Assembly: GCA_943350765.1 (NCBI GenBank)
Contig: CALRAJ010000001.1
Span: 16,873 to 80,872 of the forward strand
Direction of reading: 5' to 3'
Source: Candidatus Tayloriibacteriota bacterium
Lineage (GTDB): Bacteria; Patescibacteriota; Minisyncoccia; Phycocordibacterales; PALSA-1337
DNA: 64,000 bases
The translations under genes and the position numbers were made by a program. The notes under the pieces are model-generated. The model saw only the letters and a program-made list of their open reading frames with translations, was not told the origin of the DNA and searched no databases. Each line of letters begins with the position of its first letter. The first letter of the stretch is position 1. Positions 3,173-63,082 of this stretch are shown piece by piece.

Positions 3173-3175
3173 TTA

Positions 3176-3286
3176 GGTTTTTCAAAATAGTCCTTTTTAA
3201 GGGTACGAGTATTTCCCTGGTAGGAAATTTCTGAAGTCTCGGCTACACGCCTGCGAACCCCCTTAAAAAGGACTATTTTGAAAAAC
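3176..3286. repeat. short divergent copy of the MITE-like palindromic element (core CGAGTATTTCCCTGGTAGGAAATTTCTGAAGTCTCGGCTAC)
   Basis: The arms TTTTCAAAATAGTCCTTTTTAAGGG / CCCTTAAAAAGGACTATTTTGAAAA form an inverted repeat. The core is shared with the other copies. Confidence 0.55.
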
Positions 3287-3322
3287 CTTTGTGGTGGTGG
3301 AGGTAGGTGAGAAGTTAAAAAT

Positions 3323-5140: not shown

Positions 5141-5171
5141 TCAAAAGTCGAAAGTACGGAGTTGAAAGTGG

Positions 5172-5209
5172 AGAAATCCCCGAATTTTCAGTAGAAAATT
5201 CGGGGATTT
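5172..5209. repeat. hairpin module of the CCCCGAAAAT family (AAATCCCCGAATTTTC-AGTAG-AAAATTCGGGGATTT)
   Basis: A perfect inverted repeat is read from the sequence. Related copies lie at 31932-31976 and 54664-54693, with a variant at 9664-9710. Confidence 0.5.
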
Positions 5210-5228
5210 ATGGCAAAAGTAGGTAAAA

Positions 5229-5290
5229 ATGAGATTGGCTCTGCAGAGCCAATCTCATCGGCTAAACTCCGTGCTTAGCCGATGAGATTT
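5229..5290. repeat. composite hairpin module TGGCTCTGCAGAGCCA + GGCTAAAC-N-GCTTAGCC
   Basis: Two adjacent perfect palindromes. The same two-part module recurs at 9598-9657, 19093-19150, 45441-45497, 50921-50962 and 54702-54755. Confidence 0.55.
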
Positions 5291-5356
5291 ATAGGTAGAT
5301 AAGGTTAAATAACTAGTGCATCTACGCTATAGCGTAGATGCACTAGTTTAGGTTAC

Positions 5357-5497
5357 TCCAAATTACAAAATACCTTTCTTAGCATATCTTTTTGAAAGCA
5401 CGAGTATTTCTTTGGTAAAAAATCTCTCAAGTCTCAGCTACCCGCTTCCGAAGTCTTTCAAAAAGATACGCCTGCGACGGTATTTGGTAATTTGGTG
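5357..5497. repeat. MITE-like palindromic element, short variant in reverse orientation with a central deletion
   Basis: The termini are CCAAATTACAAAATACC...GGTATTTGGTAATTTGG, and the core CACGAGTATTTCTTTGGTAAAAAATCTCTCAAGTCTCAGCTAC is shared with the other copies. Confidence 0.6.
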
Positions 5498-9551: not shown

Positions 9552-9801
9552 ATGTTCAATCCTACCTAAACAGTCGAAAAACTCATTTTTTGGCAAAAAT
9601 GAGAATGGCTCTGTAGAGCCATTCTCATCGGCTAAACCCCGTGTTTAGCCGATGAAAACGGGGATTTGTATTCCACTAAATTTTCTACTGAAAATTTAGT
9701 GGAATAAACCTGTATTTTTTGTTAAAAAAACCTGTAGATGTATACTGTAATGTGTGGTCGTACGGTTGTGGTATACATGGCAAATGGTGCTGTTTTTTAA
9801 A

Positions 9802-15237: not shown

Positions 15238-15333
15238 GATGGTGGAGGAGAAAAACAGCCTAAAGGCTCAACGGGCGCCGTTGAGCCTTTGGGCTATTTG
15301 GGGCTTCTATACAGGCATATTTTGTGTATTTTA

Positions 15334-15543
15334 CCACCAAATTACCAAATACCTTTCTAGGCATATCTTTTTGAAGCCTATCGGTTAGGGATAGGCATCT
15401 GTAGACGAAGCCCTTGTATTTTCTTGCTAGAAAATCTCTCAAGTCTCAGCTACCGTCTGGCGCCGTCTACAGGGACACATCATCTAAACGATGTGAAAGT
15501 CTTTCAAAAAGATACGCCTGCGACGGTATTTCGTAATTTGGGG
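15334..15543. repeat. MITE-like palindromic element, full length, reverse orientation
   Basis: The termini are CCACCAAATTACC...GGTATTTCGTAATTTGGGG. It contains a CTGTAGACG...CGTCTACAG inner palindrome and the conserved core. Confidence 0.7.
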
Positions 15544-19050: not shown

Positions 19051-19181
19051 ATCAAAAATCGTTCACAAGAAGTCGTTTATGGTAAAAAGTCTAAATGGCT
19101 ATGTAGAGCCGTACTCAAAGGCTAAACACTAGTGTTTAGCCGTTTAATAGGGTATAGTCCAACCACTTTTATGACGGGTAC

Positions 19182-20768: not shown

Positions 20769-20771
20769 ATA

Positions 20772-21012
20772 CCCCAAATTACGAAATGCGTTGAAGGCGT
20801 ATCTTTTAAATGGACTTTCACATCAGTTAGATGATGTGTTCCTGTAGACGGCGCAAGGTGGGTAACCGAGACTTGAGAGATTTTCTAGCAAGAAAATACT
20901 CGTGTCCCGTCTACAGATGGTCTATTAGTTAGGAATAGACATCTGTGGACGATCTATCACTAACCGATAGACCTTTAAAAGATATGTCGAGAAAGTGTTT
21001 TGTAATTTGGGG
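20772..21012. repeat. MITE-like palindromic element, full length, + orientation
   Basis: The termini CCCCAAATTACGAAATGCG...TGTAATTTGGGG form inverted repeats. It contains a CTGTAGACGG...CCGTCTACAG inner palindrome and the conserved core GTAACCGAGACTTGAGAGATTTTCTAGCAAGAAAATACTCGTG. Confidence 0.75.
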
Positions 21013-21061
21013 TAAATTCTGCACAACCGCGTTAGTACAGACGGTGGTTTTTTATAAAATC

Positions 21062-24421: not shown

Positions 24422-24622
24422 AAATCCCCGAACTTCGTTGAAGGTGTATCTTTATAAAGGACTTTCACATCGTTAGATGATGTGTTCCTGTAGACGGCGC
24501 CATGCGGGTAGACGAGACTGAGAAAAATTTCACCAGAAATTTATGAGAGCCCCGTCTACAGGTGCCTATCCCTAACCGATAGGCTTTATAAAGATATACC
24601 GAGAAAGAAGTTCGGGGATTTA
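24422..24622. repeat. MITE-like palindromic element, variant subfamily with termini AAATCCCCGAACTT...AAGTTCGGGGATTT
   Basis: It shares the internal arms (GTTGAAGGTGTATCTTTATAAAGGACTTTCACATC...) and the inner CTGTAGACGG...CCGTCTACAG palindrome. The core is partly replaced. Confidence 0.65.
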
Positions 24623-25923: not shown

Positions 25924-26189
25924 TTTGATCGGTAAATGTATTAAAAACCCTTAGTTTGATTTGGGGTATAGTATGGCTATAAAGAGCCATTTGAACGGCT
26001 CATCAGGGCTGTTGAGCCGTTCAAAAACCTTGACTTATTTTTTAAACTAGAATAGTATATAAAGTATGAATCAAACAATTCATTTTAAGAAGCGATATAT
26101 TTGGATGGTCCTCAAACAAGATTTGAGCGCTTCTTTTTGTGATTGTTAATTTTCTCCCATTTCGCTAACCTTTAAACAACAATCCTAAA

Positions 26190-31409: not shown

Positions 31410-31820
31410 ATGGCAGACACACAAATCGGTACATCTCTCGAGGGGAAAAAAGTAATGTGGGTAGAGGACGATAATTTCCTCAGTGGACTTATTGGTAAAA
31501 AGCTTGCACATGAGAAGGCGATTCTTTTTAGTGCAAACAATGGTGAAGATGCTGTAGTGATGATAGAAAAAGAGCATCCAGATGTGCTTTTGTTGGATAT
31601 TTTGCTTCCAGGTATCACTGGTCTACAGGTACTTCAAAAGATAAAAAGCAATCCTACTACAAAGGATATTCCTGTACTTTTACTTTCAAACCTTGGTCAG
31701 AAAGCAGATATTGATAAAGGAGCACAGCTCGGGGCGGAAAAGTTTCTCATCAAAGCTACGCTGTCTCTCGATGAGATAGTACGAGAAGTAAAAAGTGTGA
31801 TTGCAAAAAAGACAGTATAA
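31410..31820 (+). CDS. single-domain response regulator (CheY-like receiver), orphan
   Basis: A REC domain with an acidic pocket (VEDD), the phospho-acceptor context LLLDILLPG, and LLSNLG / KFLIK motifs. There is no output domain and no adjacent kinase. Confidence 0.75.
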   Translation: MADTQIGTSLEGKKVMWVEDDNFLSGLIGKKLAHEKAILFSANNGEDAVVMIEKEHPDVLLLDILLPGITGLQVLQKIKSNPTTKDIPVLLLSNLGQKADIDKGAQLGAEKFLIKATLSLDEIVREVKSVIAKKTV

Positions 31821-31931
31821 TTTGGGGTATAAACCTAAACGGCTAAACACTAGTGTTTAGCCGTTTAAAGCTAGTACTAGAGCCGTATTTTAGCTCAAAG
31901 GCTCAACGGTGTTTATCGTTGAGCCTTTGAT

Positions 31932-31976
31932 GGAGGTATCCCCCGAAAATCATTAGATTTTCGGGGGATACCTCCA
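31932..31976. repeat. perfect 20 bp hairpin GGAGGTATCCCCCGAAAATC / GATTTTCGGGGGATACCTCC (CCCCGAAAAT family)
   Basis: Read from the sequence. It sits between the response-regulator gene and uvrA, together with GGCTAAAC and GGCTCAAC hairpins at 31841-31935. Confidence 0.5.
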
Positions 31977-32029
31977 GTAATTCACTATTTTTATTGTGTA
32001 TAAGCTAAAAACCTGATATAATCCGTTTT

Positions 32030-34690
32030 ATGTCAAAAGCACAGTACCATCACCCGGGTATAGATTCTATTGTTATAAAAGGAGCGAGAACTCATAATCT
32101 AAAAAATATAAGTGTCGAAATACCACGCAATAAAATGGTGGTTTTTACGGGTTTATCTGGCTCTGGAAAATCATCACTTGCTTTCGATACTATTTTTGCT
32201 GAGGGTCAGAGGCGTTATGTCGAATCATTGTCCTCATACGCTAGACAGTTTCTCCGTCAGATGCAAAAGCCAGATGTCGATGAAATCACAGGACTTTCGC
32301 CAGCTATTTCTATTGATCAAAAGTCACGGTCAAACAACCCTCGTTCGACTGTCGCCACAATTACTGAGATTTATGACTATCTCCGTATTCTCTATGCTCG
32401 CATAGGTAAGCCCCATTGTCTCGAATGTGGTTCAGAAATAAAAAAGTTGTCGAACGAGGAAATAAAAAACTTTGTACTTGAAAAAGTAGACAAGGCTTCA
32501 TCTCACCATGCCGATTTTATAGAAATATTTTCACCACTGGTGCGAGGACGAAAAGGCGAGTATTACCAGCTTCTATATGATCTACTGGGCAAGGGCTATA
32601 GTGAAGTCCTTATAGATGGTAGTAGAAAAAAGCTTCGTGAGCAGATAGTTTTGACTAAAAATAAACGCCACGATATAGCGGTACTTGTAGACCGTATTCG
32701 TATTGTCGATTTTAAAACTGATACAAGGTCATCACTCGAGCGACTCAGCGAGTCATTGGAAAAAGCTTTGCAGGAGTCAGATGGTCTTATTCGCATTATT
32801 CTTTCAGACACTACTAAACAAGTAAAAGACAAAATCGAGGCAAGTGATAGACCAGATCTAGCGGGAGCCATTTCCCCAGTCATGCTTGAAACCAAAGATC
32901 TGAGTATTAAAGAGGATTTTCTGATGTCTTCTAAATTTGCTTGTCCAAAAGATGGCTATTCGTATCCAGAAATAGAGCCGAGACTTTTTTCATTTAACTC
33001 ACCATACGGAGCCTGTCCAGAATGTAATGGTTTGGGTACAAAGCAGTTTTTCGGTGATGAGCCATGTGAAAAATGTAAAGGGGCTCGTCTGCGTGAGGAG
33101 GCGCTTCATGTTACAGTGGGTGGGAAAAATATCGTTGATTTTACCACACTTTCGATATCGGATTCAGAGGTATTTCTTGCCGATTTAAAACTCACAGCAA
33201 CTGAGAAAAACATTGCAAAAGTTATTTTAAAAGAAATAGAAAGTCGGCTCACCTTTATGATCAATGTCGGTATAGAGTATCTATCTCTCAATCGTCGAGC
33301 GCATACTCTTTCAGGTGGTGAGGCACAGCGTATCAGACTAGCTTCACAGCTCGGCTCAGGTCTCGTCGGTGCATTGTATGTATTAGATGAGCCGACTATT
33401 GGGTTACACTCTCGTGATAATGACCGACTGATAAAAACTCTTGTAGACCTTCGAGATGCAGGTAACAGTATTTTGATTGTTGAGCATGATGAGGATACTA
33501 TCTATGCATCTGATTTTATTGTGGATATTGGACCAGGGGCGGGAATACATGGTGGTAAAATAGTGGTGGCAGATTATCTAGAGCCACTCTTGACCGCAAA
33601 GAAAAATGATTCAGAATCGCTTACCCTCGACTATCTCCGTGGTGAGCGAAAAATAGAAATACCTAAAACTCGCCGTGATAAAGACAAAGGCAAGATAATG
33701 ATCCGTGGAGCGAATGTATTTAATTTGAAAAATGTCAATGTCGATATTCCACTCGGCAAGCTCGTGCTGGTGACTGGTGTATCTGGGTCAGGTAAATCAT
33801 CTCTCATCTATGAGGTGGTCTATAAGAATCTCCAAGCTCGACTAGAGAGGCGTCATCGTACAAATGATGTTTACTACTGCGCCTCATTTTCAGGGAGCGA
33901 ATATCTAGGTAGAGTGGTGCTTATTGACCAGTCGCCAATAGGTCGTACACCTCGCTCAAACCCTATGACCTATACTGGTGCTTGGAGTTTTGTGCGAGAG
34001 CTTTTTGCGGAGTCTGCTGAGGCTCGAGTGCGTGGCTGGAAGGCAAATCGTTTTTCATTTAATGTAAAAGGTGGCCGTTGTGAGGCGTGTCAGGGTAACG
34101 GTGAGATAGCGGTAGAGATGCACTTTTTGCCAACCGTCTATGTGCCGTGTGAAGTATGTGAAGGTAGGCGTTTTATGAAAGAGACACTCGAAATAAAATA
34201 TAAACACAAAAATATATATCAGGTATTGTGTATGACGGTGGAGGAAGGGCTGGTATTTTTTGAAGATATTCCTGCGGTGTATGATAGGCTCAAGAGTTTG
34301 AATGATGTAGGTTTGGGATATTTGGAATTGGGGCAATCCGCTACCACTCTTTCTGGTGGGGAAGCTCAGAGAGTCAAGGTTTCCTCCGAGCTGTATCGTC
34401 CACATATTCAAAAAACTATGTATATTTTAGATGAGCCATCTATTGGTCTGCACTATGAGGATGTGCGAAAGCTAATAGAAATCGTCCAAAAGCTCGTAGA
34501 CAAAGGTAATACGGTGGTGGTCATCGAGCATAATATGGATATTGTAAAGTCTGCGGATTATGTAATCGATATTGGACCCGAAGGTGGGGACAAGGGTGGA
34601 AAAATCGTGGCAAAAGGTACGCCCGAGGATGTGGCAGGGAATGAAAAGTCTTATACAGGACATTATTTGAAAAAGGTGCTAAAGAAATAA
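32030..34690 (+). CDS. uvrA: excinuclease ABC subunit A
   Basis: Two ABC ATPase modules are present ([10 protein letters not shown] / [10 protein letters not shown]), with LSGGE signature motifs and zinc-finger cysteines (CPKDGY...CPECNG; CEACQGNG...CEVCEG). Confidence 0.9.
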
Positions 34691-34725
34691 TTTGGGGTAA
34701 ATTAAGACCAATAGTATCCAAAACA

Positions 34726-35660: not shown

Positions 35661-36107
35661 TACAAAATAAAAAGCCCGACATTTAAAAATGTAGGGCAGG
35701 GGAATACGCCCTAAACCAGATCCGTGCGAGTGCCTGAGTACGGCTACACAGACCTACAGCCCAACAGAGGTGGTTGCAGAACAGCCACATACATGAGCAC
35801 ACAGATTTCTGAAAAAGAGCGACAAGGATTACATTACCCATCACAGCATAAATGCTAGGCTATTTGGAACATATGACAACCAAACTTCCTTAGCACCCAC
35901 GCTCCAAGTAATACTCAAACCCCTACCCTAGGGTATTTATAGCTTATCTTAATAGATCTGACAATACTTGACAAGTATGGTATACTTGTGCTATTATTAA
36001 TGATAAGTTTCCAACCTAAATAAAAGTCTGATTGTGCTTTTCTTTACAAACCCAACGGCTCAACATGCCTGTTGAGCCGTTGGAATGGCTAATCTAAGGC
36101 TTATTTA

Positions 36108-38564: not shown

Positions 38565-40724
38565 ATGAAACTTACAGAAAACGAAAAAAGAGACGTTATA
38601 AAATACTTGGATGCTGGTAAACCTTTGCCAGACAAGTATCGATTTTTGCTATTCAAGGATGATAGAGAGGTTGAGCTTGTATGGAATGGAAAAACAAACG
38701 AGGTTACCAATGTGGTTTTACCTTTTCAAATTATTGAGCAGATAGATGAACCGAGAGAGGGCAAAGAGTTTGGAGATGGTGGAACGCTTTTTGATACATC
38801 GGGAAAACAAATAACGGGCTGGACCAATAAACTTATTTGGGGCGATAACAAACTCATTTTATCATCGCTCAAGAATGGTCCGCTTAGAAAAGAAATAGAA
38901 GCACAAGGAGGATTGAAACTGATTTATATAGACCCACCATTTGATGTCGGGGCTGATTTTTCTGTGCCAATTAAAATTGGCGAAGATGATGAGGAAAGTT
39001 TTACTAAAAAACCGTCAGTGATTGAAGAGGTTGCTTTTCGTGATACTTGGGGTAAAGGAGCTGATAGTTTTATCGCTATGATGTATGAGCGATTGAAATT
39101 GATGCACGATTTACTTGCGGAGGACGGAAGTATTTATGTTCATTGTGATTGGCGAGTAAACAGTTATATGCGTTTGATTTTAGATGAAGTATTTGGAAAA
39201 GATAATTTTCTTAATCAACTTATTTGGCATTATCAAGCAGGGACTGCACCCATAAAAGGATTCGCAAAAAAGCACGACTACATTATTTCGTTTGCAAAAA
39301 ATAGGGAATCAGTAATTTTTAATCAGGTTCGGCTTCTTGTAAAAGACGAGAGTATATATCCGTTGTTTGATGAAGACGGAAGAAAATATAGAATGTCTGG
39401 CAATAACAACGCAACAAGATATTATGCTGACGAGGGACGAAAAGCTGATGATGTTTGGACTTGGTTGGATAGAAAAGAAAATAACATTGTACAGGTATTC
39501 AACGCACTACCAGAGCATATAAATTATCCAACACAGAAACCAGAGAAGTTAATTAGGAGAATAATAGAGGCATCTTCAAACGAAGGTGATTTAGTCGCTG
39601 ATTTTTTCTGTGGCTCGGGTACAACTTTAGCCGTAGCAGAGAAGCTCGGCAGAAAATGGATTGGTTCAGACTTGGGAAAGTTTGGTGTTCATACCTCAAG
39701 AAAAAGAATGATTGGCGTGCAGAGAGAGTTAAAAAAAGAAAGCAAAGGGTTCAGAGCTTTTGAGATTATGAATGTTGGTAGATATGAACGAGAAAACTTT
39801 ATCTCTACAAATAATGATTTGCGAGCCGAAGAAAAAGCGAAACAAATAGAAAAGAAAGAAAAAAAGTTTGTCTCGCTTATTCTCTCCGCATACAAAGCAG
39901 AGCCAGTAGAGAATTTTGAGAACTTTGTTGGTAAGAAGAGAGACAGGCTTGTCGCTATCGGTCCCATCAATCTACCCGTGTCCTCAAAGTTTATCGACTT
40001 CATCCTCGAAGAATGTACTATCCATAAAATTACCAAGGTTGATGTGCTTGGATTTGATTACGAGATGGGGCTAGATTTTACAAAGTCTAAAGATTTGGGC
40101 ATTGATATAGAATTTAAGGTTATTCCAAGAGAGGTATTTGATAAGAGGGCGGTGGAACGAGGACAGGTAAAGTTCTACGATGTCGCTTTCATTGAGTGTA
40201 AGCCGATTGTGTCGGGGAAAGGTGCTACAAAAGAACTATCAATAGAGCTAACTGATTTTTCCGTTTTCTATAACCAAGACAACACTGGAGAGATTGAGCA
40301 GGATTTGCGAGCGGGAGGTACAAAGGTTGTCGTTGAAAACGGACAAGTTATAAAGATTTCCAAAGATAAGAAAACTGAAATCGTTACTCGTGAGGTTCTT
40401 ACTAAAAAGTGGAGTGATTGGATTGACTACTGGGCTGTGGACTATGACTTTGCTGATAGAAAAGAAATAATTCGAGTACCAAAGACACACGGCGATAATC
40501 TGTTTGAGAAAGGTAAGCAACAAGACCTCATAGAGTATGAGGAAGTTTGGACTGGAGACTATATCTTTGATAACGAGTGGCAGAGTTTTCGTACCAAAAA
40601 GAAACGCAATCTTGAGCTTGTTTCTGCTCCAAAAGAATTACCGAAAGGAAAATATAAAGTAGCAGTTAAGGTCGTGGATATTTTTGGGAACGATACGACA
40701 AAAGTAATTGAGGTGAAAATATAA
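38565..40724 (+). CDS. mod: Type III restriction-modification methyltransferase (Mod, N6-adenine)
   Basis: Motif IV DPPF (IYIDPPFDVG) and motif I (FFCGSGTTLAVAEKLGRKWIGSDL) are present. The size is typical for Mod, and a Res gene lies downstream. Confidence 0.85.
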   Translation: MKLTENEKRDVIKYLDAGKPLPDKYRFLLFKDDREVELVWNGKTNEVTNVVLPFQIIEQIDEPREGKEFGDGGTLFDTSGKQITGWTNKLIWGDNKLILSSLKNGPLRKEIEAQGGLKLIYIDPPFDVGADFSVPIKIGEDDEESFTKKPSVIEEVAFRDTWGKGADSFIAMMYERLKLMHDLLAEDGSIYVHCDWRVNSYMRLILDEVFGKDNFLNQLIWHYQAGTAPIKGFAKKHDYIISFAKNRESVIFNQVRLLVKDESIYPLFDEDGRKYRMSGNNNATRYYADEGRKADDVWTWLDRKENNIVQVFNALPEHINYPTQKPEKLIRRIIEASSNEGDLVADFFCGSGTTLAVAEKLGRKWIGSDLGKFGVHTSRKRMIGVQRELKKESKGFRAFEIMNVGRYERENFISTNNDLRAEEKAKQIEKKEKKFVSLILSAYKAEPVENFENFVGKKRDRLVAIGPINLPVSSKFIDFILEECTIHKITKVDVLGFDYEMGLDFTKSKDLGIDIEFKVIPREVFDKRAVERGQVKFYDVAFIECKPIVSGKGATKELSIELTDFSVFYNQDNTGEIEQDLRAGGTKVVVENGQVIKISKDKKTEIVTREVLTKKWSDWIDYWAVDYDFADRKEIIRVPKTHGDNLFEKGKQQDLIEYEEVWTGDYIFDNEWQSFRTKKKRNLELVSAPKELPKGKYKVAVKVVDIFGNDTTKVIEVKI

Positions 40725-40729
40725 ACAAT

Positions 40730-40954
40730 ATGGCAAGAATAAATTTTAATCAGATATTTAATAGAAACCCTCAAACTGGTGCAATAACACCGAGAGCCAT
40801 GGTTCGAGTTGGCGGGGTTACTTTTGGTACTGGAGTTACCTTTGGTGCAGGGGTTTCATTTAGCGGTATTGATTTATCACAATTTATAAATAACGACTTT
40901 GAAGTTGATGTTGAAGGAGAGTTGTTTGTTATAAAGGGAATTTATACTCAATAA
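40730..40954 (+). CDS. small Gly-rich protein, 74 aa (repeat GVTFGTGVTFGAGVSFSG), inserted between mod and res
   Basis: The ORF lies in the 5 bp-spaced gap after the mod stop. No family was recognised. Confidence 0.35.
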   Translation: MARINFNQIFNRNPQTGAITPRAMVRVGGVTFGTGVTFGAGVSFSGIDLSQFINNDFEVDVEGELFVIKGIYTQ

Positions 40955-40958
40955 TTAT

Positions 40959-41261
40959 ATGGCAAAACAAGAACCGCAAATAAAATTTAATGACCCGATT
41001 GAAACAATAAATAAAAAACTGGATAATTTTTTCTTGATTCTTTTTTCAGTCGGATTTGTATTTGTCATAACTCTTATTGTTATGGTTGTAACTTTACTTA
41101 TCGATTCTTTTCATTTTAATTCTGCTACCTATAAAGAGTATGCAGAAAAAACAGATGCGGTAGAAGCTACGCAAAAAATCAATCAACAACTCCTAGAGCA
41201 AAATGCTAAGAATCAGCAGATGATTATTGATTTAGCAACTCAGCTTTTACAGAAAAAATAA
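40959..41261 (+). CDS. small single-pass membrane protein with a C-terminal coiled-coil, 100 aa, inserted between mod and res
   Basis: One TM helix (FFLILFSVGFVFVITLIVMVVTLLI) and Q/K-rich heptad-like C-terminal residues. It is tightly packed, with 2 nt before the res start. Confidence 0.4.
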   Translation: MAKQEPQIKFNDPIETINKKLDNFFLILFSVGFVFVITLIVMVVTLLIDSFHFNSATYKEYAEKTDAVEATQKINQQLLEQNAKNQQMIIDLATQLLQKK

Positions 41262-41262
41262 T

Positions 41263-43947
41263 ATGGCACTCCATAAAGATTTTCCTAAAGACCCATACGC
41301 AATCCTAGACCCGAACATTCGGTGGTTTCCTGCTGATGAAGACTTACGAGAGAAAGGTTTTGATAAGCTCATACCGCCCCTAGTAGCAACGCTAAGAAAG
41401 GAGGTGCAAGAATGGAGAAATAATAAATACGAGGGTGCGAGCGAGACATCCAAAGCACTTCTAGACTGGTGGTTCAAAGAGGAGCATATTATCTATAATA
41501 CAGACGGCTCATCCTATAATTTCCGATACTACTTTGCTCAGAGAGAAGCCCTAGAGACTGTTATTTGGCTCTACGAGGTCGCTGGGGTCAAAGATAAGTA
41601 CGATTTGATAAGATACAACTCTACTGGCGTACTAAGTCCTCAAATGTTCACTGAGGATTGGCTTAGATTCGTGATTAAAATGGCGACAGGGGCAGGTAAA
41701 ACAAAGGTAATGAGCTTAGTCGTTGCTTGGGCATATTTCCATAGGTTGTACGAAAAAGATTCGGGACTGGCTAAAAACTTTCTTTTGATTACGCCAAATG
41801 TCATTGTCTTTGAAAGAATTAAAAAAGATTTTGAAGGTAGTGGTAATATTTTTTTTACAGACCCAGTAATACCTGAAAATGGTTATCAAGGTCAAAACTG
41901 GAGAGATGATTTTCAAGTAACTTTACATCTGCAAGATGACCTACGAGCTATCTCTGATACAGGTAACATTTTTCTCACAAACATTCACCGAGTTTTTGAA
42001 AGTGATGTAAGTGAGGCGGGTGCGGAAGACGAGGACACTTCGGAGTATTTTCTTGGTGATAAGTCAGTAACTAAAACAAACGATTCAACTGTTGATTTAG
42101 GAATGATAATCAGAGACATAGAAGAGCTTGTTGTCATCAATGACGAAGCTCACCATATTCACGAAGAAAATGCGTGGTTGAAGTCCATCCGTGATATTGA
42201 TAACAAACTAAAACAAAAAGGTGGTCGGCTATCCTTGCAGTTGGATGTTACGGCTACTCCAAAGAAAAATGATGGCTCAATTTTTGTGCAGGTTATTTCT
42301 GACTTTCCACTTGTCGAAGCTATACACCAAAGAATAGTAAAAAATCCTGTGGTTCCCGATGAGGCAAGTAGAGGTAAATTAAAACCAAACCAAAGCACTT
42401 TATTCAGTGAAAAATACAGAGATTATATAAATCTTGGTATTGAGGAGTGGAGGAAGACATACAAGGAGCTTGAGCCGACTGGCAAGAAATCAATTCTTTT
42501 TATAATGACTGACGACACCAAGAATTGTGATGAAGTTGCCGAATACATAGAGACAAGTTTTGCTGATTTGAAAGGTGCAGTGCTAACGATTCACACAAAC
42601 AAAAGCGGAGAGATTTCAGAGACAGTTTCTGGTAAGAATAAGGATGAGCTTGATACCCTTAGAAAACAAGCGAATGACATAGATGGCTGGGGTAGTCCGT
42701 ATAAGGTCATAGTATCCGTTATGATGCTCAAAGAGGGCTGGGATGTTAAGAATGTGACGACTATAGTCGGTTTACGCCCCTACGCCTCAGATTCAAAGAT
42801 ATTGCCCGAGCAGACGCTTGGTAGAGGTTTGAGACGAATGTATTTCGGCAGGGACGACATTGATGAGTATGTGAGCGTCATCGGTACGCCTGCGTTTATG
42901 GACTTCGTTGAATCAATCAAAGGCGAGGGTGTATTACTTGAAAAACGACTTATGGGAAGTGGGTCCAAGCCAATTACTCCTATGGTTGTGGAGGTAGACA
43001 AAGACAATCCAAAGAAAGATATTGAGAAACTTGATATAGAAATCCCTGTAATGTCGCCGAGAATACAAAGGGAATATAAAAACCTTGCCGAGTTAGATGT
43101 GTCTAGGTTTGGTAATAAAAAAGTCGCAATCAAGACCTTCTCAGAGCAAGAAAAACGAGAGATTGTGTTTAAAGATGTAGTAGACGAGAAAGTGCATCAC
43201 ACCACCATACTTACTGGCGATATTGAGCCGAACTATCAAAGCGTGATAGGTTTCTTTGCACAGGCGATAATGCGAGAGCTACGGCTCTTTGGTTGCTACG
43301 ATATTCTCTTTGGCAAAGTGAAGGATTTTGTAGAGAATCAGATGTTTGATGGCTCGGTCAATCTTTCGGACATGAACCTACTCCGCAATCTATCAGAGAT
43401 AGAGTATATAAAACTTATTAAAGATGTTTTCAAGAAAGGCATCAATGAGCTTACGGTGGAAGACAAGGGAGATACTGAGATAAAAAACTATATAAAAATC
43501 AGTGAAGCGAGACCATTCGTGGTGAACGACAAATCTTTCTTAATACCGCAAAAATCTGTATTCAACAGAATCGTTGGCGACAGTGGTTTTGAGCTTGAGT
43601 TTTCTGCTTTCTTGGACAAGTGCGATGATGTCGTTTCTTTTGCTAAAAACTTTCAAAATAAAGAAGCGAACGCTCTCCGCATTGAGTATAAAAATGCGGA
43701 GGGTTTTATCGCTTACTATTACCCCGACTTCTTTGTGAAAGTTGACGACAAAAATATATTCATAATTGAAACCAAAGGCAGAGAGGAAGAAGACGACAAG
43801 CTCAAGTTTGATCGGTTGTTAAAATGGTGCGAAGATGTAAATAGCAGGCAGACCAAAATGATTTACAAAGCTCTGTATGTAAAACAGGAAATTTGGGATA
43901 AATATAAGACAAAAGACTTCAGGGAATTAATTTCGATATTTAAATAA
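41263..43947 (+). CDS. res: Type III restriction endonuclease subunit (Res, SF2 helicase-nuclease)
   Basis: Walker A (MATGAGKTKVM), a DEAH box (VINDEAHH) and helicase motif VI-like (LGRGLRR) are present. The size is typical for Res. Confidence 0.85.
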   Translation: MALHKDFPKDPYAILDPNIRWFPADEDLREKGFDKLIPPLVATLRKEVQEWRNNKYEGASETSKALLDWWFKEEHIIYNTDGSSYNFRYYFAQREALETVIWLYEVAGVKDKYDLIRYNSTGVLSPQMFTEDWLRFVIKMATGAGKTKVMSLVVAWAYFHRLYEKDSGLAKNFLLITPNVIVFERIKKDFEGSGNIFFTDPVIPENGYQGQNWRDDFQVTLHLQDDLRAISDTGNIFLTNIHRVFESDVSEAGAEDEDTSEYFLGDKSVTKTNDSTVDLGMIIRDIEELVVINDEAHHIHEENAWLKSIRDIDNKLKQKGGRLSLQLDVTATPKKNDGSIFVQVISDFPLVEAIHQRIVKNPVVPDEASRGKLKPNQSTLFSEKYRDYINLGIEEWRKTYKELEPTGKKSILFIMTDDTKNCDEVAEYIETSFADLKGAVLTIHTNKSGEISETVSGKNKDELDTLRKQANDIDGWGSPYKVIVSVMMLKEGWDVKNVTTIVGLRPYASDSKILPEQTLGRGLRRMYFGRDDIDEYVSVIGTPAFMDFVESIKGEGVLLEKRLMGSGSKPITPMVVEVDKDNPKKDIEKLDIEIPVMSPRIQREYKNLAELDVSRFGNKKVAIKTFSEQEKREIVFKDVVDEKVHHTTILTGDIEPNYQSVIGFFAQAIMRELRLFGCYDILFGKVKDFVENQMFDGSVNLSDMNLLRNLSEIEYIKLIKDVFKKGINELTVEDKGDTEIKNYIKISEARPFVVNDKSFLIPQKSVFNRIVGDSGFELEFSAFLDKCDDVVSFAKNFQNKEANALRIEYKNAEGFIAYYYPDFFVKVDDKNIFIIETKGREEEDDKLKFDRLLKWCEDVNSRQTKMIYKALYVKQEIWDKYKTKDFRELISIFK

Positions 43948-45253: not shown

Positions 45254-45585
45254 GGGTAACTCGATAGCTAAAATTACATACCCAGAATTACGAAAGAGTA
45301 AGACCCGCGGCGAGTACGCCGCGGGCGGAACCGAGCATAAATCCATTCGATGGCTCAGTGCTTTTGTATAAAAACCACTGAGCCATTACTATTTTTATAC
45401 CAAAAATAGGTTAAAAATAGTATAAAAAGCAAAAATCAAATATGGCTCTGTATAGCCATACTCAAAGGCTAAACGCTAGCGTTTAGCCTTTGAGTATTTG
45501 TGGCATAAAGTCAAAACCGCCTGATAAGGCGGTTTTGACTAGAACATTCAGAAAACAAAATTCGCAGACATATTACTGCTGTTGC

Positions 45586-46186: not shown

Positions 46187-46328
46187 ATATTTTATGTATT
46201 AAAATTAAATTATTATACTATTAAGCAAAGTACCGACCATTCTTAATACTAAATTATATACCTCAATATCATAAAAATATATACCGAATGTGGATAACTT
46301 AAATGAGTATCTGCTATAATGTGGTTTA

Positions 46329-46567
46329 CTCCAAATTACAAAATGCGTTGAAGGCGTATCTTTTAAATGGACTTTCACATCAGTTAGATGATGTGTTCCT
46401 GTAGACGGCGCAAGGTGGGTAACCGAGACTTGAGAGATTTTCTAGCAAGAAAATACTCGTGCCCCGTCTACAGGTGGTCTATTAGTTAGGAATAGACATC
46501 TGTGGACGATCTATCCCTAACCGATAGACCTTTAAAAGATATGCTGAGAAAGCAATTTGTAATTTGG
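46329..46567. repeat. MITE-like palindromic element, full length, + orientation, lying in the zwf 5' leader region
   Basis: The termini are CTCCAAATTACAAAATGCG...CAATTTGTAATTTGGGG. It carries the inner palindrome and the conserved core, and is about 96% identical to the copy at 20772-21012. Confidence 0.75.
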
Positions 46568-46577
46568 GGTAAATTAA

Positions 46578-47999
46578 ATGGAAAAAGCTATATTTACTGA
46601 TTCGGGGCAAGTTACTCCGACTATATTTATCATCTGTGGTGTTACAGGTGATCTGGCTCAGCGAAAGTTACTGCCTGCACTACTTAGCTTGTATGTAAAA
46701 AAGCTATTACCTCACAAATTTAAAATTGTGGGTTTTTCAAGGCGGGAATTTTCTGATCAGGACTTTAGGCTTTTTTTACGCGAAGAAATGCATATAAATC
46801 ATAATGTATACCGACCTGAGGACATACATCGTTTTTTAAACAACATTGTTTATCAGCAGGGGCAGTTTGATATCTCTACCGCGTATGAAAATCTGGCAAA
46901 GAAACTTCTACATATTGATGAGGTAGAATTTAAACAATGCTCAAATAAATTATTTCATCTTTCGGTGGCACCTTCATTCTATGAGACTATTTTGGGTCAT
47001 CTTTCAAATTCGGGACTTACTATTCCTTGTGGTGGTAATCTCGGCTGGACTCGGATACTCGTGGAAAAGCCATTTGGCAATGATATAGAAACAGCAAAAA
47101 AGCTCGACATTTTGCTAGGGACTCTTTTTAAGGAGGAGCAAATCTTTCGCATCGATCATTACTTTGCAAAAGAAGCACTTCAAAATATCTTAGCTTTCCG
47201 TTTCTCAAATTCACTTTTTGAGCCTTTATGGAACAACAAATACATTGATTGTGTGCATATACAGCTACTTGAAAAAATAGGTATCGAGGGTCGAGGTACC
47301 TTTTACGATAGTGTCGGTGCATTGAAGGATGTTGGTCAAAATCACATTCTTGCGATGCTTGCACTACTTGCTATGGATAAGCCCGATGCTTTTGACGCAC
47401 AAAGCATTAGAAAAAAGAGGGCAAATGTTTTAAAAAATCTACTACCTATTAATAAAAATATATGTGATTCCGTTGTCCGCGCCCAATATATCGGATATTC
47501 TGAGGAGTCAGGTGTTTTGGCTAATTCGACGACTGAAACATATTTTCAGCTCAAAACTTTTATTGATACAAAAGTTTGGAAAGGAGTACCATTTTATCTT
47601 GAAAGTGGCAAAGCATTAAATGAAAATAGGGCTGAAATCTCTATTTATTTTAAAGATACTACAGGCAAGGATAAGACAAATGTGCTTTCTCTTAGAATCC
47701 AACCAGATGAAGCAATCAAGATTCGTTTTTGGATAAAAAAGCCCGGTTTTGATATGGAAACAGAGGCGAAAACCTTATCATTTCACTACAAAGATTTTCA
47801 TAGTACCGACTCAATCCCCGATGCCTATGAGAGGGTGCTGTACGATGCTATTATCGGAGACCAAACACTTTTCACTAGCACAGACGAGGTAAAGTACGCG
47901 TGGAGGTTCATCACACCCATTATTGATATGTGGAAGACAACACCTCTATATAAATATAAAAAAGGTAGTCGTGGTCCAGATAGTACCGATCAATCATGA
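46578..47999 (+). CDS. zwf: glucose-6-phosphate 1-dehydrogenase
   Basis: An NADP-binding motif (GVTGDLAQRKLLPAL) and the G6PD active-site motif (RIDHYFAKE) are present. Confidence 0.8.
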   Translation: MEKAIFTDSGQVTPTIFIICGVTGDLAQRKLLPALLSLYVKKLLPHKFKIVGFSRREFSDQDFRLFLREEMHINHNVYRPEDIHRFLNNIVYQQGQFDISTAYENLAKKLLHIDEVEFKQCSNKLFHLSVAPSFYETILGHLSNSGLTIPCGGNLGWTRILVEKPFGNDIETAKKLDILLGTLFKEEQIFRIDHYFAKEALQNILAFRFSNSLFEPLWNNKYIDCVHIQLLEKIGIEGRGTFYDSVGALKDVGQNHILAMLALLAMDKPDAFDAQSIRKKRANVLKNLLPINKNICDSVVRAQYIGYSEESGVLANSTTETYFQLKTFIDTKVWKGVPFYLESGKALNENRAEISIYFKDTTGKDKTNVLSLRIQPDEAIKIRFWIKKPGFDMETEAKTLSFHYKDFHSTDSIPDAYERVLYDAIIGDQTLFTSTDEVKYAWRFITPIIDMWKTTPLYKYKKGSRGPDSTDQS

Positions 48000-49090
48000 A
48001 AAATCAAAAAATAGATAAAGTTTTTTTGTTTAGTGTAATTTTCCTAACAGTTGGAGGGTTTTTTATTTTTAGTTCAGCGTCTCTGGGTTTATTGGCTAGA
48101 AGTGGAACACAATTTGATTCGATTGCCCTGACACAAGGATTGGGTTTGATTCTAGGGTTTATTGGCATGGCTTTTACAGCACATCTTGACTACAATATCT
48201 GGCGCAAATACGCTTTCTACATATTTCTTGCATCAATAATTTTAAATATAATTATTTTTATTCCAGGACTTGGTATTGAGCATGGTGGCGCAAAAAGATG
48301 GTTGGATATAGGACCGATCTCATTACAGCCGTCCGAGTTTTTAAAAATTGGCTTCATTATATATTTTGCTGCCTGGCTATCTGGAGTAAAAGACAAAATA
48401 TCCCTATTTCGATATAGCCTTTTACCACTTCTCGTAATCGTCGCCATTCTCGGTCCAATTTTATATTTACAAACAGATACTAAAACACTGGTAATCATTT
48501 TTATGGCTGGTATCGCTATGTTACTGGTCGGGGGTGCACAGTGGAAACATATTGCGATTCTGGGTCTAGTTTCTATAATGGCTATCAGTGCCTTGGCATA
48601 CACTCGACCATATATAAAAGAGAGGTTGTTTACTTTTGTAAATCCAGCGAGTAACCCACAAGGTTCTGGGTATCAAATACAGCAGTCTTTGATCGCTATT
48701 GGCTCAGGTCAAATGTTCGGTAGAGGGTTTGGTCAGAGTGTTCAAAAATTCAATTTTCTACCTGAGCCTATTGGAGATTCTATTTTTGCAGTACAGGCTG
48801 AGGAGTTTGGTTTTGCTGGAAGTGTTACTCTCATTTTTGTATTTCTATTCTTTGGTTTTAGGGCGCTCCGAATAGCCTCAAAAAGCACCAACCAATTTGG
48901 TGGACTATTGGTCGTGGGAATTGTTATACTAGTGTTATCGGAGTCTTTTATGAACATTGCTTCGATGCTCGGTGTGATACCGCTTTCTGGAATGCCTTTA
49001 CTTTTTGTTAGTCATGGAGGTACAGCACTCCTACTAGTATTGGCAGAAGTAGGTATGATTTTGAATGTTTCCAAATATCAAAAAAAGTAA
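47996..49090 (+). CDS. ftsW: SEDS-family peptidoglycan glycosyltransferase (FtsW/RodA)
   Basis: Ten TM helices and the SEDS motifs (PSEFLKIGFIIYFAAWL; GQSVQKFNFLPEP) are present. The gene overlaps the zwf stop (ATGA). Confidence 0.8.
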   Translation: MKNQKIDKVFLFSVIFLTVGGFFIFSSASLGLLARSGTQFDSIALTQGLGLILGFIGMAFTAHLDYNIWRKYAFYIFLASIILNIIIFIPGLGIEHGGAKRWLDIGPISLQPSEFLKIGFIIYFAAWLSGVKDKISLFRYSLLPLLVIVAILGPILYLQTDTKTLVIIFMAGIAMLLVGGAQWKHIAILGLVSIMAISALAYTRPYIKERLFTFVNPASNPQGSGYQIQQSLIAIGSGQMFGRGFGQSVQKFNFLPEPIGDSIFAVQAEEFGFAGSVTLIFVFLFFGFRALRIASKSTNQFGGLLVVGIVILVLSESFMNIASMLGVIPLSGMPLLFVSHGGTALLLVLAEVGMILNVSKYQKK

Positions 49091-49094
49091 AATT

Positions 49095-50222
49095 ATGAAA
49101 ATACTATTAACAGGTGGTGGTACGGGTGGACACTTTTATCCAATAATTGCTATTGCATCGGCTATCCGTGAGGTCGCTCGAGCTGAAAAAGTGATTGCCC
49201 CACAGATATATTATATGGCTGAGACTCAGTATGATAGCCGTGTACTTTTTGATAATGAAATTACATTCATACCTATTTCTGCTGGAAAGATGCGTAATTA
49301 TTTTTCAATATTAAATTTCTTCGATCTATTTAAAACTATTTGGGGAACCATCAAGGCGACTATTGATATGTTTAGTATTTACCCTGATGTTGTTTTTGGA
49401 AAAGGTGGATATGTCAGTTTTCCCGCACTTTTTGCTGCGAGGATTTTACGTATTCCAGTAATTATTCACGAGTCAGATAGTGTACCTGGTAGAGTAAACA
49501 AGTGGGCAGGTAAGTTTGCTCAGAAAATCGCTGTTTCATTTAAAGATGCTGCCGATGAATTCCCAGCAGAAAAGGTGGCTTTTACGGGCAACCCTATTCG
49601 GCATGAGTTACTCACACCCCTTAAAAATGGCGCGCATGAATTTTTAAAGCTCGATCCCAATATACCCACCATCTTAATCATTGGCGGTTCGCAGGGTTCA
49701 CGAGTGATCAACGACACTATTTTAGATATTGTGCCTAACCTTGTCGAAAAGTATCAGATAATCCATCAGACGGGTAAAGATAATTTCGCAGATGTTTCTG
49801 GTCGCTCACAAATAATTTTACAGAAAAACCCAGAGAAGGATCGTTATCATCCGTACGATTATTTAAATGTCTTAGCTTTGCGTATGGTCGCAGGTGTGGC
49901 GGATCTGGCTATATCTCGTGCAGGGTCTACTATATTTGAAATCGCTTGTTGGGGTATGCCAGCTATTCTAATACCCATTGAAAATTCTCATGGCGATCAT
50001 CAGCTAAAAAATGCTTTTAATTATGCACGGGAAGGTGGGGCGGTGGTAATAGAGGAGGGCAATCTCACTCCACATGTACTACTCGGAGAGATAAATAGAC
50101 TAATGGAAAGCAAGGAGATTCGTTTAAAAATGTCCCAATCTGCCAAGGCTTTTGCACGCACTGATTCGGTGACTGTTATTGCAAAAGAGATACTCTCTAT
50201 TGCTTTGAGGCACGAAAATTGA
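49095..50222 (+). CDS. murG: UDP-N-acetylglucosamine--N-acetylmuramyl-(pentapeptide) pyrophosphoryl-undecaprenol N-acetylglucosamine transferase
   Basis: Contains the MurG G-loop MKILLTGGGTGGHFYP. It is a GT28 two-domain protein. The ORF track opens at 49065 inside ftsW. Confidence 0.85.
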   Translation: MKILLTGGGTGGHFYPIIAIASAIREVARAEKVIAPQIYYMAETQYDSRVLFDNEITFIPISAGKMRNYFSILNFFDLFKTIWGTIKATIDMFSIYPDVVFGKGGYVSFPALFAARILRIPVIIHESDSVPGRVNKWAGKFAQKIAVSFKDAADEFPAEKVAFTGNPIRHELLTPLKNGAHEFLKLDPNIPTILIIGGSQGSRVINDTILDIVPNLVEKYQIIHQTGKDNFADVSGRSQIILQKNPEKDRYHPYDYLNVLALRMVAGVADLAISRAGSTIFEIACWGMPAILIPIENSHGDHQLKNAFNYAREGGAVVIEEGNLTPHVLLGEINRLMESKEIRLKMSQSAKAFARTDSVTVIAKEILSIALRHEN

Positions 50223-50795: not shown

Positions 50796-51030
50796 TAATA
50801 GGGGTAGGTAGATATCAGATTTGAGAAGGATAAACGGTCAACGGCTCAATGGTTTAATAATAAAACCATTGAGCCGTTGTCGTGTTTTAGTCTAAACAAG
50901 CTAAAATCTAAACGGCTCTATATAGCCATTTTAATCGGCTAAACACGGGGTTTAGCCGATGGACTATATGTACCACAATTACAATAAAAATCCCGACTGA
51001 TGTGTCGGGGGTGCGGTCTTGCAGTGGGGA

Positions 51031-54609: not shown

Positions 54610-54663
54610 TAAAACTATACTTTTTTTCAGTGTACACTCGCTGGTGTATTTTTATGCACCCCA

Positions 54664-54755
54664 CCCCCGAAATTGCAGTAGCAATTTCGGGGGCTAGTTT
54701 TCATCGGCTAAACCCCGTGTTTAGCCGATTAAAATGGCTCAACAGAGCCATTTCG
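54664..54755. repeat. three consecutive hairpin modules (CCCCCGAAATTGC...GCAATTTCGGGGG; GGCTAAACCCCGTGTTTAGCC; TGGCTCAACAGAGCCA)
   Basis: All three are perfect inverted repeats from the same families seen elsewhere in the window. Confidence 0.5.
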
Positions 54756-58756: not shown

Positions 58757-58938
58757 AAATAACTTTTACAATTTTGATTTAAAACAAAAGATAAACTCCG
58801 GTTTGTGTATCGTTTTTCTGCTAGTGGCTACATTTTGGGTAGTACTTCAGTACTCAATAGCAAAGGCTTACGATATCGAACATTCGATGTCAGGTAAAAA
58901 TGCCGAGAGGTATAAATTGATGATAGGTGAGTAAACTA

Positions 58939-59144
58939 CCCCAAATTACTAAATGCGTTGAAGGCGTATCTTTTAAATGGACTTTCACATCAGTAGATGA
59001 TGTGTTCCTGTAGACGGCGCCAGACGGGAGCCGAGACTTGAGAGATTTTCTAGCAAGAAAATACTCGTGCCCCGTCTACAGGTGTCTATCCCTAACCGAT
59101 AGACCTTTAAAAGATATGCCGAGAAAGCATTTGGTAATTTGGGG
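58939..59144. repeat. MITE-like palindromic element, full length, + orientation
   Basis: The termini are CCCCAAATTACTAAATGCG...CATTTGGTAATTTGGGG. It carries the inner palindrome and the conserved core. Confidence 0.75.
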
Positions 59145-60580: not shown

Positions 60581-60625
60581 CAATGGCTCAACGGACACCG
60601 TTGAGCCATTCGTTGAGCCATTCCG
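60581..60625. repeat. tandem GGCTCAACGG hairpins (TGGCTCAACGGACACCGTTGAGCCA followed by TTCGTTGAGCCA)
   Basis: A perfect inverted repeat of the GGCTCAAC family lies between the convergent def and priA genes. Confidence 0.5.
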
Positions 60626-62683: not shown

Positions 62684-63082
62684 ATGAAAAAAGAATATAA
62701 TGAGTGGCATAATAAAAAGAAAGTTTTAAATGAACGAAAAGATATAGACAATATATTTTTCCGTGTAAAAGAAGTTTGGTGGACGGCACTTGGGGTAAAT
62801 ATAGGCTTTGAGCAAGATGGAAAGGGTGAGGAGTTTCGCCGACCCGTTTTAATTTTAAAAAAGTTTAATAAATATGTGGTGCTTGTTGTTCCACTTACAA
62901 CTAAGATTAAGAAAGACAATAAATATTATGTGTCATGCTCTATTGCAAATGATGATATTTTGCGTATGGCAATTATCTCGCAAATTCGCCTGATAGATAC
63001 AAAAAGGTTTATTGATAAACTCGGCGTAGCGAGTGAGGATTCGTATATAAAAATCAAAAACGCGATTAAGGCTATGCTCTAA
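62684..63082 (+). CDS. mazF: MazF/PemK/EndoA-family endoribonuclease toxin with an approximately 20-25 aa N-terminal extension; no adjacent antitoxin gene
   Basis: The product aligns well with B. subtilis EndoA: FRVKEVWWTALGVNIGFEQDGKGEEFRRPVLILKK versus [29 protein letters not shown], and ISQIRLIDTKRFIDKLGVASEDSYIKIKNAIKAML versus [35 protein letters not shown]. Confidence 0.65.
   Translation: MKKEYNEWHNKKKVLNERKDIDNIFFRVKEVWWTALGVNIGFEQDGKGEEFRRPVLILKKFNKYVVLVVPLTTKIKKDNKYYVSCSIANDDILRMAIISQIRLIDTKRFIDKLGVASEDSYIKIKNAIKAML

Follow-up and report, generated by a model that had tools for sequence, protein, structure and literature searches.

Within a 64,000-nucleotide stretch of a Candidatus Tayloriibacteriota genome (contig CALRAJ010000001.1 of assembly GCA_943350765.1, positions 16,873 to 80,872; hereafter the window), we found seven copies of a non-coding foldback repeat, 110–243 bp long, one of which (the focal copy) lies directly upstream of zwf. 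The repeat is a discrete unit, its orthologous sites occur in filled and empty states, and at its center is a conserved, covarying three-way junction. We favor, with modest confidence, the interpretation that it is a non-autonomous foldback element of the Correia kind, bearing a selected structural module that acts as a single strand; the function of this module we infer. Positions are those of the window unless a related contig (L003, L004 and so on) is named, and copies are called by their approximate left ends.

Filled and empty sites of the repeat

At the zwf locus, the element is missing from three contigs (L044, L046 and L047) of two relatives. These contigs have the same gene order as the window (DUF4383, zwf, ftsW, murG), and their zwf genes are 81–82% identical to that of the window. 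The DUF4383–zwf spacer, in contrast, is 150–163 nt in the relatives versus 391 nt in the window, and alignment puts the entire length difference at the element, with the break falling between TA and the terminal inverted repeat (TIR) at either end. The window reads TGCTATAAT GTGGTT TA (CTCCAAATTAC...GTAATTTGGGG) TA AATTAA ATG, while the relatives read TGCTATAGT ATAGGG TA ATG, with the ATG 7–8 nt after TGCTATAGT. The empty-site alignment and the spacer difference thus place the element between an extended −10 box and the zwf start codon, as an original prediction made from the window's sequence had proposed. The extended −10 box TGCTATAAT is the best promoter match in the region, and the element now separates it from the zwf ATG at 46578. 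The focal copy is predicted to fold into a branched hairpin of −104.5 kcal/mol (z = −10.7), in agreement with the long structured palindrome that had been expected there. Insertion would have turned a near-leaderless zwf into a gene whose transcript starts at the first base of a 243-nt hairpin. The element parts promoters from the start codons of near-leaderless genes, zwf among them.

L032, a contig otherwise syntenic with the window, lacks copy 5357 at the orthologous site, and the segments 20770–21018 and 46327–46575, 25 kb apart, are 96% identical over 249 nt. In L044, L046 and L047 (56.5 kb, L046 and L047 largely overlapping) there are zero copies. The filled and empty sites together with the 96% identical pair support a discrete mobile unit, and the proposal that the repeat is a non-autonomous mobile element agrees with these data, with the TA at its ends and with the lack of a nearby transposase. 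In 84 kb (the window plus 10 kb on each side) we detected neither a transposase nor an integrase nor a reverse transcriptase; Pfam matches across the whole window were to housekeeping genes, and the called genes, including those of the 10-kb flanks, were housekeeping or defence-related. In an all-against-all comparison of 339 ORFs from element-bearing loci, ABC ATPases were the only gene family common to more than three loci, and three-locus clusters were small. The insertion polymorphism sought for such an element was found between species; none was seen among the contigs of the same species that were compared. Termini of the CCCCAAATTAC/GTAATTTGGGG type are carried by five window copies and one copy on L040, and TA flanks all six on both sides. 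A single TA lies near the empty site, where the alignment is exact to within ~6 nt. A TA duplication is consistent with these data, though unproven, because TA is self-complementary and simply extends the inverted repeat.

The window copies were located with R1, a covariance model for which all input copies came from other genomes and which was run on the whole window with filters off. R1 gave exactly seven strong matches (35–103 bits; Table 1), at the seven places where copies had been predicted, and all weaker matches were generic hairpins that scored on both strands. A 37-nt core pattern, allowing up to 3 mismatches, matched four times in the window and never in 100 shuffles. With up to 2 mismatches allowed, TACCCCAAATTAC matched 15 times against 2.0 expected, and ten of these matches are termini of copies 46329, 20772, 58939, 15334 and 5357. 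An eighth copy is located 10 kb outside the window, which brings the total to 8 in ~84 kb.

All window copies proved to be intergenic, and the open reading frames (ORFs) called across them are short antisense artefacts; both points had been anticipated. Copy 3176 takes up the intercistronic gap between the genes for an aminoacyl-tRNA synthetase and an ABC ATPase, and, for window copy 24422, a short-form copy follows the orthologous FKBP gene in L022. Alignment of the seven copies revealed shared arms, shared termini (TA-CCCCAAATTAC...GTAATTTGGGG-TA) and the core in all seven; four or five copies, the large ones, contain the inner palindrome CCTGTAGACGG...CCGTCTACAGG. Some details of the original prediction required correction. 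The focal copy, first delimited as 46329–46567, does start at 46329 but ends 2 nt further on, at 46569. TIRs, described for every copy, are missing from copy 3176, which has no CCCCAAATTAC termini, and take another form in copy 24422. The core, said to be invariant in all seven, is identical over 37 nt in three copies only, differs by 3 mismatches in a fourth and is more diverged in the remaining three; the cores of copies 15334 and 24422 are partly decayed.

The core module across species

The core is a three-way junction of ~58 nt that is common to copies in other species. Its consensus runs R-S-UUCG-S-A, a 3-bp stem with a GGGUA loop, GAGACUU-S-A, a hairpin of 10 bp that has a bulged A and is capped by an ASCA loop, and GUR. 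In every copy a long helix, P1, encloses the irregular hairpin with the GGGUA loop (PX) and the 10-bp hairpin (P3); the sequence of P1 varies among copies, and the purines of the junction are conserved. Ranked by mutual information, the highest-scoring pairs coincide exactly with the base pairs proposed. Mutual information also shows a lone pair, 28–54, switching from C-G to G-C, and a purine–purine covariation in the junction, from A.G to G.A, holds in 37/38. In 38 short forms, 97.5% of pairs are canonical, compared with 43–51% when the partners are slid; in 25 of 32 pairs both positions vary, and none of 500 shuffles reached the observed value. The search pattern fixed part of the core and left the covarying hairpin positions free. 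RNAalifold independently gave P1, PX and P3 along with two invariant pairs that lengthen the GGGUA hairpin, and diverged copies contain further compensated pairs (e.g., 57–80 from A-U to G-C, and 55–82 to G-C). The recurrence of the core in other species inside unrelated stems, with covarying helices, upholds the earlier suggestion that it is under selection. Orthologous copies that exceed their flanks in conservation and differ by compensated pairs (figures given below) also favor a selected core. It is a concrete candidate, from an uncultured lineage, for a novel structured RNA or for a signal in folded single-stranded DNA.

A search of the window against Rfam 15 at the gathering threshold returned two tRNAs only, and large and short forms searched at E≤10 returned only generic hairpin and miRNA-precursor matches, far below thresholds. 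Hammerhead, tRNA-like and T-box-like readings do not seem to fit in junction strand order and length, which is a lead only. We also considered and rejected a pseudoknot between the GGGUA loop and a UACC loop in P3, as the P3 loop varies (ACCA, AGCA, AGUA) while GGGUA is unchanged, and a resemblance to boxA, as UGCUCUUU occurs in one subtype only, lies within a paired stem and is not general.

The core pattern was found in only two species-representative genomes, both metagenome-assembled genomes of Patescibacteria (FW305_bin.8 and a Candidatus Taylorbacteria), and the zwf homologues are named Patescibacteria, Taylorbacteria or Paceibacterota. A metagenome pattern scan yielded 29 loci, 1 of them a false positive. 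Pattern scan, genome matches and model searches together gave 63 copies (61 distinct) in 361 kb of related contigs. The 22 copies found by the model alone obey the same structural rules, and BLAST with the whole element revealed no core-less relatives. Five matches in viral contigs, with no hairpin around them, were taken to be false positives, and nothing matched in collections of plasmids and phages. We found nothing on the element in literature on Patescibacteria or the candidate phyla radiation combined with transposable elements of the miniature inverted-repeat kind (MITEs), repeats or noncoding RNA. Patescibacteria have very small genomes and are thought to be poor in repetitive or mobile DNA; therefore, a density of ~1 copy per 10 kb without a visible transposase is unexpected.

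About half of the 61 distinct copies have an asymmetric internal loop (5′ strand YGTYGAAGG, 3′ strand CCGAGAAAG) and an outer helix of the form CCSRAATYRCRAAAT, of which the window termini are one version; there are also plain hairpins without the TIR motif, such as copy 3176. The large window forms add three hairpin modules, which occur separately or permuted in other genomes, and the long accessory hairpin has a short version in other copies (CTATC-CCTAACC-GATAG). A second, promoter-proximal subtype has the form A6-GAG-core-CTC-T6 with conserved CGGAG/CGTAG flanks. Eleven copies of this subtype have a sigma-70-like promoter, TTGAC-N16-18-TAnnnT, at a fixed offset and then, a few bases on, the ATG of rpsP, rpsT, the S10 operon, nusG or gatC, whereas none of the 44 copies of other stem polarities has such a promoter. 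The element marks promoters of translation genes in relatives. In the window copies, the core-proximal stem has the T-tract on its 5′ side and the A-tract on its 3′ side, and the element is not followed by a T-run; with the tracts in this order, these copies are not intrinsic terminators.

Two loci contain paired cores, head-to-head at L003 6507–6689 and in tandem at L005 6185–6363. In L005, the accessory hairpin block is on the opposite side of the core from that in the large window form, as if modules had been permuted.

Known repeats and alternative explanations

As a discrete, TA-bounded unit with TIRs, presence/absence differences and near-identical copies, and with no transposase nearby, the repeat behaves like a MITE of the Correia, ERIC or RUP type. 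Bacterial MITEs are small, with terminal inverted repeats, TA termini, target duplications and long stem-loop transcripts (PMC2229807). Correia elements fall into two size classes and have an internal conserved segment, promoters and RNase III effects (PMC2229807, PMC2649163). Similar to the Correia/NEMIS elements (CREE) of Neisseria as described there, our repeat is a small, non-coding, intergenic foldback sequence with TIRs and TA at its termini; it also has two size classes set by an internal segment, a conserved central part and long (here predicted) stem-loop transcripts, may sit between a promoter and its gene, and has no identified transposase. It differs from CREE in its host phylum, in a central part that is a covarying three-way junction kept across species inside unrelated stems, and in termini that vary between copies of one genome; the likeness is one of traits, not of compared sequences.

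RUP and ERIC elements share with the repeat a TA insertion site, TIRs, a length of 100–250 bp, intergenic location and stable hairpin transcripts, again predicted here (PMC2229807). RUP has been proposed to be moved by IS630-Spn1. Unlike these elements, our repeat has asymmetric flanks, no IS630-like partner was found for it, and its most conserved part is an internal structured module. Similar to REP and REPIN sequences (Di Nocera 2013, PMC3733652), it forms high-copy extragenic palindromes with large hairpins, conserved spacers and GTAG/CGTC motifs, and CGTC-type REPs are also without a known transposase (PMC3733652). A REP unit, however, is a self-palindrome of 20–40 bp with a GTAG/CGTC tag, and dimers are tagged in both arms (PMC3733652), whereas here the arms pair only with each other (CGTCGAAGG in the 5′ arm, CCGAGAAAG in the 3′ arm), CGTC is in one arm only, the TIRs are true ones and no RAYT was seen. 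CIR repeats of Caulobacter and Brucella are likewise intergenic, with a short motif exposed in a predicted conserved RNA structure (PMC2229807); our repeat has another motif and fold, and what it conserves is a junction of 58 nt for which covariation gives statistical support. The long CREE form has a binding site for integration host factor (IHF) in its internal segment; here the IHF consensus WATCAANNNNTTR occurs six times in the window, as often as chance would give, and never inside a copy. The repeat stands apart in its Patescibacteria host, the lack of an IHF site, the variable termini within a genome and the covarying junction without an Rfam counterpart.

As a Correia-like element, the repeat would be mobilized in trans by an unseen transposase and would duplicate TA upon insertion. 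Its module would act as a folded single strand, most likely RNA arising from read-through transcription of the flanks, and the junction may serve for recognition or processing at the top of a long double-stranded stem that influences what becomes of the mRNA, in the way RNase III acts on Correia hairpins. The promoter-proximal subtype (A-tract, core, T-tract, then TTGAC-N17-TAnnnT) looks like an exapted terminator or insulator. A bolder and distinctly tentative claim is that the junction represents a new functional RNA class, protein-recruiting or catalytic, spread by a foldback mobile element and repeatedly exapted by hosts, at about a hundred copies per Mb (extrapolated from the 8 copies in 84 kb). 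If true, it would have been exapted, for example, as an insulator or terminator before ribosomal-protein promoters, and as intercistronic processing sites.

Several findings weigh against a Correia-like mobile element. The right flank reads TA-AA in five of six copies and the left has no mirror of this. The search for a cognate transposase, which covered these 84 kb and 297 kb from related loci and thus only part of any genome, found none, nor any full-length insertion sequence (IS) with matching ends. Because TA is self-complementary and no cognate transposase was found, assignment to the IS630 type is not possible. Termini differ between copies on one contig, each outer helix being self-complementary and the core constant, and paralogs with identical inner parts carry unrelated outer helices, whereas classical elements of this kind conserve their termini. 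Orientation relative to genes is random (7 sense, 13 antisense, 11 divergent, 8 convergent), so that a sense-RNA function could hold for some copies only. G.U pairs outnumber A.C pairs on the core-sense strand (52 versus 22), but since the copies are not independent this excess only hints at one folded strand, and in a smaller set (24 versus 15) it was not significant. The predicted contrast between a strongly conserved core and weaker arms is strong only when other genomes are added and slight within the window (mean pairwise identity 77% versus 72–74%), and it is inflated because the copies were retrieved by their core.

The main rival, possible though clearly less probable in our judgment, is that the repeat is a structured RNA or DNA element with a host function, of the REP or terminator/insulator type, which would have multiplied through duplication and recombination and been retained by the host, not selfish, with its core a protein-binding or processing signal and its long stem an mRNA stabilizer or terminator. 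Orthologous copies are indeed more conserved than the flanking genes: window copy 3176 is 94% identical to its counterpart in L032 versus 75% in the flanks, and a copy shared by L004 and L037 is 90% identical versus 76–84%, with three compensated pairs. Host function would also suit copies that often fill the whole intergenic space, 0–40 nt from the neighbouring start and stop codons, as well as the fixed offset of the promoter-proximal subtype before its genes, with A6...T6 polarity, and a core that stays constant while stems differ within a single genome. It is harder to reconcile with clean filled and empty sites that have TIR and TA boundaries, with a 96% identical pair at unrelated loci, with random orientation relative to genes, or with two window copies whose cores have decayed while their stems are intact; as terminators, moreover, the window copies do not qualify, and no terminator was found at the element end. 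The mobile-element and host-maintained readings may each hold in part.

It is improbable that the repeat is a hairpin transposon that moves as single-stranded DNA, of the IS200/IS605 or REP-RAYT type, with the core as the folded recognition site of a tyrosine (HUH) transposase and TA as its target instead of a duplication. Structure is kept more than stem sequence, unpaired motifs are strand-specific, G.T pairs are tolerated on one strand and the flanks are asymmetric (TA-AA on the right only), all as such a transposon would have it; GTAG in the PX loop and the promoter-linked flanks, and CGTC in the 5′ internal loop, recall REP tags (PMC3733652). Yet the arms are not individually palindromic REP units and are tagged on one side only, the TIRs are genuine, the cut sites would be 20–58 bp from the core at variable distance, and no Y1 transposase or TnpB was seen in the DNA examined. 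IS200/IS605-derived elements would have no TIRs and would be biased in orientation with respect to replication. Here orientation shows no bias relative to local GC skew (23 versus 32 copies; in the window, where skew is uniformly positive and G+C is 40%, 3 minus and 4 plus), and a link to replication was rejected on the same counts. Still less probable is that the core is a new small self-cleaving ribozyme or another catalytic or ligand-binding RNA riding on a repeat, as known ribozymes often do. The three-way junction is compact, its junction nucleotides are invariant, its helices covary and it matched no Rfam family, all of which would be in keeping with this; cmscan at E≤10, however, gave nothing relevant, the core is unlike the hammerhead, twister, pistol, hatchet and HDV consensuses, and large forms persist with the CUUCGG junction strand replaced. 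The suggestion, made originally, that the core is a sigma-70 promoter (TTGAGA-N16-AATACT) we regard as the least probable of all. Its 9/12 consensus match at 46430–46457 is of a quality found at chance frequency in the region (3 versus 2.2 expected), and promoters adjoining genes in this clade are much closer to consensus. Furthermore, the "spacer" is a covarying hairpin, and one subfamily has TTCAGA in place of the "−35", this G-to-C change being compensated by C-to-G at column 28, 26 nt upstream.

Feature coordinates and other sequences of the region

Table 1. Coordinates of the focal copy, its parts, the zwf promoter and the other window copies
Feature	Position	Strand	Remarks
Focal copy (46329), large form, entire foldback element	46329–46569	+	TA at 46327–46328 and 46570–46571
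Left TIR CTCCAAATTAC	46329–46339	+
Right TIR GTAATTTGGGG	46559–46569	+
Asymmetric internal loop, 5′ strand GCGTTGAAGG	46345–46354	+	partner CTGAGAAAG
Asymmetric internal loop, 3′ strand CTGAGAAAG	46544–46552	+
Accessory hairpin CACATC-AGTTAGAT-GATGTG	46376–46395	+	large forms only
Inner palindrome CCTGTAGACGG...CCGTCTACAGG	46398–46474	+	surrounds core in large forms
Conserved core	46412–46461	+	R1 match 46386–46479 (+), 67 bits; covariation
Core PX tip GGT-GGGTA-ACC	46414–46424	+
Core junction GAGACTTGA	46425–46433	+
Core P3 hairpin	46434–46458	+	bulged A 46455; AGCA loop 46444–46447; then GTG
Accessory long hairpin	46476–46530	+	includes 33-nt insertion common only to copy 20772
Native zwf extended −10 box TGCTATAAT	46312–46320	+	−35 TGGATA at 46291; 10/12 match with TG
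Large-form copy (20772)	20772–21012	+	96% identical to focal copy over 249 nt; TA at 20770–71 and 21013–14; R1 match 20829–20922 (+)
Full copy (58939) without 33-nt hairpin extension	58939–59144	+	TA at 58937–38 and 59145–46; R1 match 58995–59087 (+)
Full copy (24422), other termini (AAATCCCCGAACTT...AAGTTCGGGGATTT)	24422–24622	+	lower P3 degenerate; R1 match 24475–24567 (+), 35 bits
Full copy (15334), reverse orientation	15334–15543	−	core 3′ side mutated (ATACAAGGG); R1 match 15390–15488 (−), 39 bits
Short form (copy 5357): TIRs, internal loop and core	5356–5497	−	no accessory hairpins; TA at 5354–55 and 5498–99; R1 match 5381–5479 (−), 103 bits
Plain short form (copy 3176): 26-bp stem and core	3175–3288	−	no TIR motif; R1 match 3186–3284 (−), 101 bits

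Genes of the clade often look leaderless, with a TATAAT-like box 7–9 nt before the ATG (zwf in the relatives, rpsP, rpsT). Examples are at L044 7790–7822 and L046 9970–10003, and downstream of the repeat in L004, L024, L037 and L038. In the window, zwf, ftsW and murG (46578–50222) are tightly packed, zwf and ftsW overlapping by 4 nt and murG following a few bases after. This order is kept in the relatives, and the pairing of a pentose-phosphate gene with cell-wall genes is unusual.

Solo sequences resembling the right terminus are located at 31817–31829, 34687–34699 and 25956–25968. In the form ATAATTTGGGGTA they overlap two genes at their stop codons, with gene ends at 31820 and 34690, and TTGATTTGGGGTA, at 25956, lies ~30 nt beyond the end of the preceding ORF. 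These may represent remnants, target sites that are preferred, or a motif native to the genome and mimicked by the terminus. At ~2040–2068, AAACTCGTCGAGGCTTGTTTTTGAG resembles the element's 5′ arm and internal loop, lacks the core and 3′ arm, and is possibly a truncated copy.

Other dispersed hairpins populate the window. Those of the form CCCCGAAnTTTT-CTACTG-AAAAnTTCGGGG (5167–5216, 9662–9713, 31925–31981 and 54660–54704) have a stem-loop that is approximately the reverse complement of a variant of core P3 (AAAATTTC-AGTA-GAAATTT), and similar hairpins precede the promoter-proximal subtype in other genomes. A second family consists of two-hairpin doublets, GGCTCTGTAGAGCC and CGGCTAAAC(N4-6)GTTTAGCCG, usually just 3′ of genes (2054–2119, 5222–5291, 9592–9661, 19084–19149, 31829–31870, 45431–45496, 50899–50968 and 54698–54737); one doublet is conserved at the orthologous site of L032, and these are probably terminator-like repeats. 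A third hairpin family, GGCTCAACGG...CCGTTGAGCC, is intergenic (1993–2016, 15265–15287, 31900–31925, 36057–36078 and 60585–60607).

Defence-type genes occupy 38565–43947 and 62684–63082 of the window; they comprise an N6/N4 methyltransferase gene with a ResIII helicase-like gene after it, and the gene of a PemK toxin. In the relative's contig L044 (212–3875) there is a ubiquitin-like/ThiF/BubE cluster with an M78 peptidase and HTH gene.

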